DNA of 2,082 nt from the NCBI RefSeq assembly GCF_003334765.1, contig NZ_QOWT01000074.1. One strand, written 5' to 3'. The notes beneath the pieces were generated by a model that searched no databases, had not been told where the DNA came from, and saw only the letters and a list, made by a program, of their open reading frames with translations. Within the stretch, counting starts at the first letter, position 1, and every line of letters starts with the position of its first letter. This document shows positions 124-2,082 of this stretch, piece by piece. A program made the translations under genes and the position numbers. This DNA comes from Escherichia coli. GTDB lineage: Bacteria; Pseudomonadota; Gammaproteobacteria; Enterobacterales; Enterobacteriaceae.

Positions 124-324
124 TCACCAGCTACACAGTATACACACACTGACGCTGACAGTAGTCAGCAGGACCACAATAATCAGCGCCAGCAGTATGG
201 TAACGATACGGTCTGTATTCCGGTAGTAGCCGAAGGGGTCGACAGAACCACAATACGGGCAACACACTGTATTATGAGTAATCGCGTTTCCACAGTCCCT
301 GCACTTCTTTTTGCGTATCACCAT
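124..324 (-). CDS. Small zinc-ribbon protein with a C-terminal transmembrane helix (about 66 aa), function unknown
   Basis: ORF track 124..327 (-). The translation has a CxxC-x9-CCxxC zinc-ribbon pattern (CRDCGNAITHNTVCCPYCGS) followed by an uninterrupted hydrophobic stretch (IVTILLALIIVVLLTTVSVSVCILC), consistent with a single-pass or tail-anchored membrane protein. On the minus strand an AGGAGG Shine-Dalgarno (plus coordinates 335..330) sits 5 nt upstream of the ATG at 324..322, so I prefer the ATG at 324 over the GTG at 327. Not assigned to a named family. Confidence 0.6.
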   Translation of the reverse strand: MVIRKKKCRDCGNAITHNTVCCPYCGSVDPFGYYRNTDRIVTILLALIIVVLLTTVSVSVCILCSW

Positions 325-327
325 CAC

Positions 328-523
328 TCCCTCCTCACAGCCTTACCCGTAACCGGTTTTTTACATTAAAAAAACAACGCTGAAAATTCAACCGTCAGTC
401 CGGAGACGACCGTTCGGGTTATCACAGAGTGCCTGAGACAGTGTCCTGCCGGAGGTCACTTCAGGGACTCTGCGCATTTTTTACGACGTGGCTATTCCGT
501 ATGAACCATACGGAGATTTAACC
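328..523. promoter_or_regulatory. Divergent intergenic region, presumably carrying promoters for the minus-strand small gene and the plus-strand YagK/YfjJ-like gene
   Basis: 196-bp non-coding gap between two divergently oriented start codons. It contains an AT-rich palindrome (356..375) and a perfect 7-bp inverted repeat at 497..513. I found only weak sigma70-like hexamers (for example TTTACA at 360..365 on plus; TTGAAT/TAATGT on minus at 391..386 and 368..363), so no precise promoter is called. Confidence 0.3.
497..513 (+). promoter_or_regulatory. Perfect inverted repeat CCGTATG-aac-CATACGG overlapping the Shine-Dalgarno of the downstream gene
   Basis: Read directly: 497..503 CCGTATG, loop 504..506, 507..513 CATACGG (exact reverse complement). 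The GGAG at 511..514 is the likely Shine-Dalgarno for the ATG at 524 and lies partly in the 3' arm. Confidence 0.3.
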
Positions 524-1093
524 ATGACCTACAAATACAACCCCTTCTGGCAGCAACGTATTCGTGAGACGGTGCGGCACGCACTGAATGTTCATCCCCG
601 CCTGACGGCATTGCGGGTTGACCTGCGTCTCCCGGATGTACCGGCAGCAACGGACGCAGCTGTGATATCCCGCTTCATCAATGCCCTGAAAGCCCGAATC
701 GACGCTTACCAGAAACGTAAGCATCGGGAAGGTAAACGCGTGCATCCCACAACCCTGCATTACGTCTGGGCCCGGGAGTTTGGGGAGTGCAAAGGTAAAA
801 AACACTATCACCTGATGCTGCTGGTCAACCGGGATACCTGGTGTCGTGCCGGTGATTACCGCGCTCCGGAGTCTCTGGCCGGGATGATTAAACAGGCGTG
901 GTGCAGTGCCCTGGGAGTGGATGTCGGGTGCCATGCCACGCTGGTGCATTTCCCGGCCTGGCCGGCGGTGTGGCTGGAACGCGATGATGACACTGGCTTT
1001 CAGCAGGTGCTGGAACGTGCTGACTATCTGGCGAAGGAACATACCAAAGCTCACTGCACCGGTGAGCGCAATTTTGGCTGTAGCCGGAGTTGA
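524..1093 (+). CDS. YagK/YfjJ family protein (Pfam 'Inovirus Gp2'-like), putative replication-initiation or nicking protein of a mobile element
   Basis: ORF track 488..1093 (+). I recognise the overall sequence character (N-terminal MTYKYNPFW..., HYVWAREFGE, KKHYHLMLLVNRD) as the YagK/YfjJ family found in E. coli cryptic prophages CP4-6 and CP4-57; this is from memory, not a search. HYHLMLL at 803..823 resembles an HUH-type motif. Start preferred at ATG 524 (GGAG at 511..514, 9-nt spacer) rather than GTG 488, which would add 12 residues and place the 497..513 palindrome inside the coding sequence. Stop TGA at 1091..1093. Confidence 0.8.
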   Translation: MTYKYNPFWQQRIRETVRHALNVHPRLTALRVDLRLPDVPAATDAAVISRFINALKARIDAYQKRKHREGKRVHPTTLHYVWAREFGECKGKKHYHLMLLVNRDTWCRAGDYRAPESLAGMIKQAWCSALGVDVGCHATLVHFPAWPAVWLERDDDTGFQQVLERADYLAKEHTKAHCTGERNFGCSRS

Positions 1094-1169
1094 GCACGAC
1101 TGGCGCGCCAATACCCGGCAAACCAAAAGTATGGGTTGTTGTCTGGCGGCAACGATGTATCCACTCGCC

Positions 1170-1193
1170 CACTGACTGTTTTTTACGTCAGTG
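1170..1193. repeat. Inverted repeat CACTGAC-N10-GTCAGTG with a T6 run in the loop
   Basis: Read directly: 1170..1176 CACTGAC pairs with 1187..1193 GTCAGTG; the loop 1177..1186 is tgttttttac. It lies in the 253-bp gap between the YagK/YfjJ-like gene and the first Cys-rich gene. The T-run is inside the loop, not 3' of the stem, so it is not a canonical intrinsic terminator. Confidence 0.3.
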
Positions 1194-1346
1194 TTCCATT
1201 GTGTGACAACCACAGTGCTGTAACAGCAACCAGCCTGCTTTACCCAAACTCCAGTCCAGATTTTAACTGAACCGCCATTCACACCCTGACCACGCTGCCC
1301 GTACCGGGACGGCTGTTGCCTGCGTGTCGTCTGGCGGCTGAGGTAT

Positions 1347-1754
1347 ATGACTATGTACGCAAAATCCTTTATCGCTCTTGATGGCAACGGACGTCTGACG
1401 GGCGCCCGTACTGCACAGGCCGCACCTTATGCTAACTACACCTGCCACTTGTGTGGCAGTGCACTCAGATACCATCCGCAATACGAAACTGAACTTCCCT
1501 GGTTTGAACACACTGACGACAGGCTGACAGAGCACGGTCAACAGTGCCCTTATGTCAGGCCGGAGCGCAGAGAAATACAGTTGATTAAACGTCTGCAGCA
1601 ATTCGTACCGGATGCCTTACCCGTGGTGCGTAAAGCCAGCTGGCACTGCAGACAATGTCACCACGATTATTATGGGGAGCAGTACTGCACACACTGCCAG
1701 ACCGGAGGATTCAGTATTCCCCGGACAACTCAGGAGGAAATATGCGAATTCTGA
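1347..1754 (+). CDS. Cys-rich putative zinc-ribbon protein (135 aa; paralog A of a tandem pair), function unknown
   Basis: ORF track 1347..1754 (+). Conserved pattern C-HL-C-GS...PWFEH...C...W-H-C-RQ-C-xx-DYYGE-xx-C. The CxxC-x14-[W/H]F[A/E]H spacing recalls the N-terminal zinc ribbon of CoiA-like competence proteins (CxxC...HFAH); that is a motif-level resemblance only. GAGG at 1340..1343 is 3 nt from ATG 1347 but 9 nt from the in-frame ATG at 1353, so the true start may be 1353. Stop TGA at 1752..1754. Confidence 0.65.
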   Translation: MTMYAKSFIALDGNGRLTGARTAQAAPYANYTCHLCGSALRYHPQYETELPWFEHTDDRLTEHGQQCPYVRPERREIQLIKRLQQFVPDALPVVRKASWHCRQCHHDYYGEQYCTHCQTGGFSIPRTTQEEICEF

Positions 1755-2082
1755 ACTGTTATATGGCGAATGACAGCAAAGGCCATTTTGTTACGGCGAA
1801 AGAAGCTGCGAAGCACAACCGACAGGACGTTTTGTGCTGTGTGTCCTGTGGATGCCCGTTAACACTTCAGCGGGGCAATGACGGACAACCACCGTGGTTT
1901 GAACATGACCAGATGACTGTCGCTGAAAAAATCCTGCTGCGATGTACCTGGCTTGACCCGGCAGAGAAAGAGGCCCGTCGTTTGCATCTGCAGGGCATGA
2001 CGGTTCCGGATTATACGGTGAAGGTGAGAAAGTGGTTTTGTGTGATGTGTGACGAAGATTATGAGGGGGAAAAGTGCTGCCC
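1742..2082 (+). CDS. Cys-rich putative zinc-ribbon protein (paralog B; 3' end truncated by the window), function unknown
   Basis: Translating by hand from ATG 1742 gives MRILNCYMANDSKGHFVTAKEAAKHNRQDVLCCVSCGCPLTLQRGNDGQPPWFEHDQMTVAEKILLRCTWLDPAEKEARRLHLQGMTVPDYTVKVRKWFCVMCDEDYEGEKCC..., open to the window end. It aligns with paralog A at A-x-D-x-x-G-x-x-T-x-A-x-x-A, CxxCG, PWFEH, VPD...VRK, W-x-CxxC-xx-DY-x-GE-xx-C. AGGAGG at 1732..1737 precedes the ATG. The start overlaps the 3' end of paralog A by 13 nt in a different frame. An alternative in-frame ATG lies at 1763. Confidence 0.6.
   Translation, partial: MRILNCYMANDSKGHFVTAKEAAKHNRQDVLCCVSCGCPLTLQRGNDGQPPWFEHDQMTVAEKILLRCTWLDPAEKEARRLHLQGMTVPDYTVKVRKWFCVMCDEDYEGEKCC

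Follow-up and report, generated by a model that had tools for sequence, protein, structure and literature searches.

The closest known counterparts of the protein analyzed here are YfjJ and YagK of Escherichia coli K-12, encoded in CP4-57 and CP4-6, respectively. In CP4-57, the gene order is alpA-yfjI-yfjJ, with yfjI matching the PHROG family 'DNA helicase' (E = 5e-82). Our literature search found no functional study of any member of this family, whose genes appear in publications as annotations or island markers. The protein encoded in the window, that is, the entire 2,082-nt stretch of E. coli DNA that was analyzed, resembles YfjJ and YagK in that it matches PF11726 over the full length, contains the same HUH and YxxK residues, and is hosted by a tRNA- or tmRNA-integrated island carrying a tyrosine integrase and AlpA. 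In contrast to these proteins, to which it is 36% (YfjJ) and 40% (YagK) identical, it is 19 aa shorter, and its gene neighbors a pair of DUF7828 zinc-ribbon genes in place of YfjI or YagL. Given this level of identity and the shorter length, it represents a third paralogous lineage of the family. The gene and its family carry existing annotations, and Pfam already implies the relationship to HUH proteins, so that none of these is novel as such.

The ATG of the corresponding open reading frame (ORF) is separated by 8 nt from a Shine-Dalgarno GGAG (512-515), and the same ORF is present in RefSeq as WP_021545344.1, under the product name 'inovirus Gp2 family protein', with identical ORFs found in E. 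coli chromosomes. The initial annotation located the ORF correctly but, having counted the stop codon, gave its product as 190 aa instead of 189 aa. The proposed membership in the YagK/YfjJ family was confirmed by a Pfam search with the 189-aa protein, in which PF11726 (YagK_YfjJ_C) was matched with an E value of 6.3e-48 across positions 1-170 of the 170-position model, followed by a weak second match to PF23343 (REP_ORF2-G2P; E = 5e-5). NCBIfam contained no model for the protein, neither the protein nor the family profile had a sequence match in the PDB, PADLOC detected nothing for the protein or its neighbors, and Rfam detected nothing in the window at E <= 1. An antisense 289-aa ORF spanning the whole gene (518..1387, minus strand) was considered and rejected as a shadow ORF, because it is open in the present allele only, being interrupted by 1-2 stops in the five other E. 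coli alleles and by 1-15 stops in six orthologues. The features of the window are collected in Table 1.

Table 1. Coordinates of the features in the 2,082-nt window
Position	Strand	Feature	Remarks
124..327	-	Divergent 66/67-aa ORF with N-terminal CxxC...CxxC zinc ribbon and C-terminal hydrophobic helix	RefSeq 'hypothetical'
357-364, 477-484, 1179-1186 (+); 795-802 (-)	+ and -	Copies of TTTTTTAC	Three intergenic, on both sides of the gene
477..484	+	TTTTTTAC, T-run followed by AC, AT or AAC	Conserved in 12 other genera and followed, 15 nt later in every case, by a TATGAAC-like heptamer (500-506)
497..513	+	Hairpin CCGTATG-AAC-CATACGG	3' arm overlaps Shine-Dalgarno GGAG, 512-515
524..1093	+	YagK/YfjJ-family (PF11726) single-domain HUH protein, CDS	ATG to TGA, 189 aa; stop codon included in the coordinates
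611..631	+	L30-R-V-D-L-R-L36, motif-I-like segment	First beta strand; R31 and D33 at least 90% conserved
776..778	+	E85 codon	Strand beside the HUH strand; invariant; putative third metal ligand
803..823	+	H94-Y-H96-L-M-L-L, HUH motif (motif II)	Central strand 93-102; alignment and model
1025..1036	+	Y168-L-A-K171, YxxK motif (motif III)	Y168 and K171 both invariant
1094..1352	.	Non-coding spacer, occupying the alpA slot of orthologues in other genera	Hairpin 1170-1193 with TTTTTTAC in the loop
1353..1754	+	Zn1, 133-aa DUF7828 + Zn_ribbon_11 protein	Conserved partner gene
1742..2082	+	Zn2, paralogue of Zn1 (~30% identity)	Truncated by the window boundary

To identify relatives of the protein, an exhaustive phmmer search was performed, resulting in 695 clusters at 50% identity, and residue conservation was assessed in an alignment of 74 full-length members that are 31-68% identical to the query. 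All 74 also match PF11726. Six columns of this alignment, and no others, are invariant (74/74): E85, H94, H96, W126, Y168, and K171. R31 and D33, both within the 'RVDLR' segment, as well as K175, R182, and G185, are conserved in at least 90% of the members. The HYHLMLL segment, initially noted as a possible HUH motif, maps exactly to the nucleotides given for it, as residues 94-100, and is not a chance occurrence, because H94 and H96 are invariant among 74 relatives at this level of divergence. Furthermore, 62 of the 74 members match PF23343 at E <= 1e-3, with stray matches to Rep_1, RepSA, Helitron_like_N, and Phage_GPA among a few of them. The arrangement of the motifs, in which a motif-I-like strand is followed by HUH and then by a single-tyrosine YxxK, is that of the Rep class. 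No catalytic tyrosine had been named with confidence in the initial annotation; the candidate is now Y168, invariant together with K171, which we propose to be the catalytic residue based on its conservation and position. The metal site of AAV Rep consists of Glu, His, and His and, by analogy, E85 would be the third metal ligand.

An AlphaFold2 model built from the 74-member alignment (pLDDT 95.6, pTM 0.90) supports this reading. In the model, E85 is located on a strand (residues 79-86) adjacent to the HUH strand (93-102), whereas Y168 lies near the C-terminal end of a helix (156-170) that follows the HUH strand, with K171 positioned just past this helix. The predicted structure displays the alpha/beta fold characteristic of HUH Rep-class proteins, and its best structural matches are HUH Rep nucleases, namely, SIRV1 ORF119, parvovirus NS1, Helraiser, and RepB. 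In the library of viral structures (BFVD), replication initiators of microviruses rank highest (E about 1e-5, TM 0.4-0.5). Thus, the identification of the HUH motif, put forward from a short string of residues, holds at the levels of residue conservation, profile matches, and predicted fold.

The 189-aa gene is under purifying selection. Six E. coli alleles with 86-98% nucleotide identity all retain 189 codons along with the HYH and YLAK residues, and show pairwise dN/dS of 0.09-0.31, with values of about 0.1 obtained against the orthologues from Klebsiella and Serratia. Full-length 189-aa alleles dominate the databases, forming clusters of 3421, 2204, 1153, 917, and 862 members, and many truncated copies are found there as well. 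Among 5426 complete E. coli genomes, window-like DNA was detected in 3816 (~70%), almost always in the chromosome and at a median of 2 places per genome (maximum 6), and the gene region alone was detected in 4026 genomes, in up to 9 places.

The locus is mobile DNA that belongs to a CP4-type tRNA-integrated island. The copy in NZ_CP033884 (locus L004) is a less disrupted example, in which a tyrosine integrase (25519-26784; 35% identical to K-12 IntA) abuts a tRNA-Phe gene (26982-27057) that adjoins yqgA/speC, 4.4 kb from the gene of interest. This island also encodes an AlpA-like protein (PHROG_66; E = 1e-10), a GTPase, Ag43, DUF932, antirestriction, RadC/JAB, and DUF987 proteins, and CbeA/CbtA. 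Two further E. coli genomes contain the same island backbone split by IS66, IS110, and IS3. The mobile-element context suggested in the initial annotation is thus upheld by the integrase, the tRNA gene, and the AlpA-like regulator; as for the att boundaries, which had also been proposed as a check, no distal repeat was found in a search for a second tRNA-Phe 3' end (up to 4 mismatches per 23 nt) within 76 kb. Directly after Zn2, all three E. coli contexts examined carry an IS66-family element (tnpA/tnpB/tnpC; ~22500-24700 in L001, L004, and L005), in a slot that, in other genera, can hold a second Gp2-like gene. Upstream of the module described below, ~350 nt beyond the small zinc-ribbon ORF, five E. 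coli alleles (L017-L021) contain a Hha/YmoA-family gene (~45-355), which is intact in L017-L019 and frameshifted or partial in L020-L021.

The gene order Gp2-AlpA-Zn1-Zn2 is syntenic in 12 other enterobacterial genera, and alpA adjoins the Gp2-family gene in every non-E. coli locus examined. The flanking small genes had been assumed to represent cargo; this view is not tenable for the two zinc-ribbon genes, whose conserved synteny with the Gp2 gene across 12 other genera makes them part of the island backbone. Zn1 and Zn2 are arranged in tandem, with ends overlapping by 13 nt, and both combine DUF7828 with Zn_ribbon_11 and share eight invariant Cys/His residues. A faint match to CoiA_N was obtained with one zinc-ribbon orthologue, and a search for structural matches of Zn1 and Zn2 returned none. 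In E. coli, the AlpA-like gene is inverted and located about 1.5 kb upstream (L004 18794-18997). A 200-aa hypothetical gene next to it was considered as a degenerate Gp2 and rejected (hhalign probability 0.3%). The spacer between the Gp2 gene and Zn1 occurs in E. coli in two forms, of 259 or 165 nt, with about 200 of the 259 nt, including the hairpin, swapped for unrelated DNA of ~110 nt in three of the six alleles; no remnant of alpA was found in the spacer of the window. Because the segment holding it is swapped in half of the alleles, the spacer hairpin, which with TTTTTTAC in its loop resembles a CRESS-virus origin, was rejected as an essential nick site. Most E. coli alleles retain the small divergent ORF upstream of the gene, one has it frameshifted, and searches with it gave only weak PHROG and NCBIfam matches.

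Some loci encode a second, divergent Gp2-family protein (L027, 8147-8695; L028, ~8213-8560; L031, ~2410-2787; L012, 10994-11560), either immediately after Zn2 or as the tandem neighbor of an intact copy. The second copies in L028 and L031 were detected by tblastn only. The translated copies from L027 and L012 lack YxxK and have EYK or PYL in place of HUH; judging from these substitutions, they are catalytically dead paralogues, each paired with a copy predicted to be active.

Across 13 genera, only ~60 nt of the non-coding DNA, those upstream of the ATG, could be aligned. This block consists of the T-run ending with AC, a gap of exactly 15 nt, TATGAAC, the hairpin, with TATGAAC in or beside its loop, and CGGAG. 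Among the E. coli alleles, the stem is kept and the loop varies, AAC being replaced by AACGAAAC. RNAalifold predicted no consensus structure for the block, and pairing was then tested on a hand-drawn structure; it holds for 81.8% of the cells from the other genera, compared with 25-49% when the partner columns are slid. Four stem pairs are changed on both sides in the other genera, which amounts to some covariation. Of 12 sequences folded to minimum energy, 11 have the Shine-Dalgarno sequence buried, the z-scores ranging from -1.8 to -5.9. The hairpin could be a translational brake, a recognition hairpin for the Rep, or both. More generally, the conserved block could be a rolling-circle origin, and a promoter with a translational operator hairpin would fit the sequence equally well. 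The octamer TTTTTTAC is present in the window in four copies, compared with 0.04 expected, and further copies precede the AlpA-like gene of E. coli loci by ~90 nt and the alpA gene of Klebsiella and Enterobacter by ~100 nt; in K-12, the motif directly follows the yfjJ stop codon. A profile search of genome contigs yielded nine usable loci, and a generic scan for promoters and terminators returned no more than chance.

Taken together, we tentatively favor the possibility that the protein is a Rep-type HUH nickase that initiates rolling-circle processing of the excised island, with replication as the outcome, while acknowledging that catalysis, substrate, and replication are all parts that we infer. 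Under this scenario, a catalytically competent, single-tyrosine Rep-class HUH endonuclease, with motifs I-II-III and HUH preceding the tyrosine, would perform a backbone function of tRNA-integrated, integrase/AlpA-type (CP4-like) islands. A divalent metal held by E85, H94, and H96 would polarize the scissile phosphate of island DNA that is single-stranded or extruded, and Y168, assisted by K171, would attack it, yielding a 5'-phosphotyrosine link and a free 3'-OH, from which rolling-circle synthesis of the island in its excised, circular form would be primed. A separate helicase would be required because the 189-aa protein lacks a helicase domain, and unwinding might be provided by a host helicase of the UvrD/Rep type or, in some islands, by their own YfjI helicase. 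Expression would probably be coupled to excision, given the near-universal adjacency of alpA, and kept low by the hairpin that buries the Shine-Dalgarno sequence. The rolling-circle scenario fits the nearest relatives of the protein, the order of its motifs, the alpA coupling, and the order of alpA, yfjI (helicase), and yfjJ in CP4-57. Several observations count against it. YfjI was not detected in the flanking 6-10 kb of the 12 orthologous loci from other genera, and a single tyrosine leaves the termination of a replication round unexplained. The E. coli islands, riddled with insertion sequences (IS), may no longer be able to excise. Finally, our searches of plasmid and phage records identified no small rolling-circle plasmid or bona fide phage that uses a member of this family as its Rep, so that replication has never been seen to depend on the family; an 11.7-kb 'plasmid' (CP101363) considered as such a replicon was rejected because it is a linear chromosomal fragment.

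The main rival explanation, which we regard as rather unlikely, is that the protein is a Rep-like relaxase acting at an island oriT, such that the excised island would be mobilized in the form of ssDNA with the help of a conjugative plasmid or an integrative and conjugative element (ICE), with replication being a by-product, as with ICE relaxases. The chemistry and the supporting evidence are identical to those of the rolling-circle scenario. Moreover, the island backbone includes antirestriction, RadC/JAB, and DUF932 genes, such as typically occupy the leading regions of conjugative elements, and no genes for phage structure or packaging were seen. Family members occur in only 64 of 72,556 plasmid records, nearly all of these being large plasmids or misfiled chromosomes; 39 of the 64 are conjugative plasmids. 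However, in canonical HUH relaxases, the tyrosine precedes the HUH motif, which is the opposite of the order in the 189-aa protein, and its closest relatives in both sequence and fold belong to the replication initiators instead of the Mob or Tra relaxases. Furthermore, no coupling protein, oriT, or mating-pore genes were found nearby, and related islands of Pseudomonas are reported to move by jumbo-phage transduction (10.1101/2024.08.29.610337).

We consider it improbable that the protein is non-catalytic or decaying, that is, an HUH-fold DNA-binding regulator, an excision accessory factor, or a relic of a dead island. The abundance of IS in the islands, the failure to find the distal att site within 76 kb, and the truncated database copies are all compatible with decay, and the existence of the dead paralogues implies that non-enzymatic roles do occur in the family. 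Nevertheless, the present copy keeps all the invariant catalytic residues, full-length alleles predominate, dN/dS is low, and the invariance of E, H, H, Y, and K among relatives with 31-68% identity is hard to reconcile with DNA binding alone. A role directed at foreign DNA, either interference or defense through nicking the intermediates of ssDNA phages or plasmids, or a satellite-like hijacking of a helper phage, is quite improbable: the protein is related to the Reps of ssDNA phages, and defense cargo, including restriction-modification systems, OLD/AAA, and TIR, as well as AbpAB in CP4-57, is common beside the module, but PADLOC had no match to the protein or its neighbors, and the gene is fixed in the backbone beside alpA, outside the variable cargo region.

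The RefSeq product name raises the question of an inovirus connection, and the term 'inovirus Gp2-like' in the initial annotation can be retained as a remote-homology label only, no true inovirus relative having been detected. When all ORFs of M13, Pf1, and Pf3 were searched with the family hidden Markov model (HMM), no annotated gene was matched: the lone match at E < 1 was to a short ORF on the non-coding strand of Pf3 (E = 0.012), and the best ORF on a coding strand had an E value of 2.2. A tblastn search of 50,697 phage records produced one match, an unverified 4.5-kb contig with 3.7x coverage (OR844780.1; L011), and close relatives were found in 2 of 2.9 million IMG/VR contigs. No genes for coat, Zot/pI, assembly, or ssDNA-binding proteins were identified in the 40-kb contexts or in the orthologous loci. 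Given these results, a remnant of a filamentous prophage, as the RefSeq name suggests, is very hard to credit, as is a Y1 HUH transposase or RAYT-type enzyme, for which flanking inverted hairpin ends and REP-like repeats were sought and none found. From the near-absence of the family in phage, IMG/VR, and plasmid records, together with the null result for M13, Pf1, and Pf3, we conclude that the family is, by the distribution of its sequences, island-specific, and that its link to the Reps of ssDNA phages is one of remote homology only. The interpretation of the 'inovirus Gp2' name as evidence of filamentous-phage ancestry, made in at least one publication (PMC9769692), is unsupported by the present evidence, and the name is misleading. 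Among the database records, a 683-bp 'Paenibacillus' contig with 0.59x coverage (L032) contains an E. coli allele of 94% identity, and four plasmid matches (H21-H24) are to records of 0.8-4.9 Mb filed as plasmids (three from E. coli and one, of 1.0 Mb, from Klebsiella). These records, as well as OR844780.1, probably reflect contamination or misclassification.

A broader extension of the rolling-circle scenario can be envisaged, although we deem it unlikely in this complete form. Gp2-AlpA-Zn1-Zn2 would constitute a self-contained, excision-coupled rolling-circle initiation unit, sometimes trailed by a catalytically dead Gp2 paralogue, and the CP4-type islands of most E. coli genomes, commonly termed cryptic, would be autonomous rolling-circle replicons or ssDNA donors once excised. 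The T-run and the hairpin would then combine the function of a nick site or origin with that of a translational operator for autoregulation, with the DUF7828 pair acting as origin-recognition or loading factors. The K-12 'y-genes' yfjJ and yagK belong to this family, of which the present lineage alone reaches about 70% of the complete E. coli genomes. An active nickase, if the prediction is right, would mean that CP4-type islands are not inert once excised but could copy themselves or donate single-stranded DNA, which would bear on the persistence and spread of islands carrying Ag43, toxin-antitoxin, and defense genes.

With the gene II proteins of Ff-type inoviruses (M13 pII, Pf1 ORF430, and Pf3 ORF301), the family has in common the RefSeq name and, as predicted, the general task of rolling-circle nicking, whereas similarity at the level of the family profile and an inovirus genome context are lacking. 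SIRV1 ORF119 Rep and the nuclease domains of parvovirus NS1 and AAV Rep share 10-14% sequence identity with the 189-aa protein, come from viruses with archaeal or eukaryotic hosts and, in the case of the parvoviral proteins, are fused to an SF3 helicase. In size and in the lack of a helicase domain, the protein is similar to plasmid Reps (about 190-260 aa). Finally, it shares with PF23343 REP_ORF2-G2P, the microvirus/gokushovirus Rep, pMV158 RepB, and pC194-type Rep_1 proteins the succession of motifs I-II-III, the HUH metal site, and the location of the tyrosine on the helix that follows.
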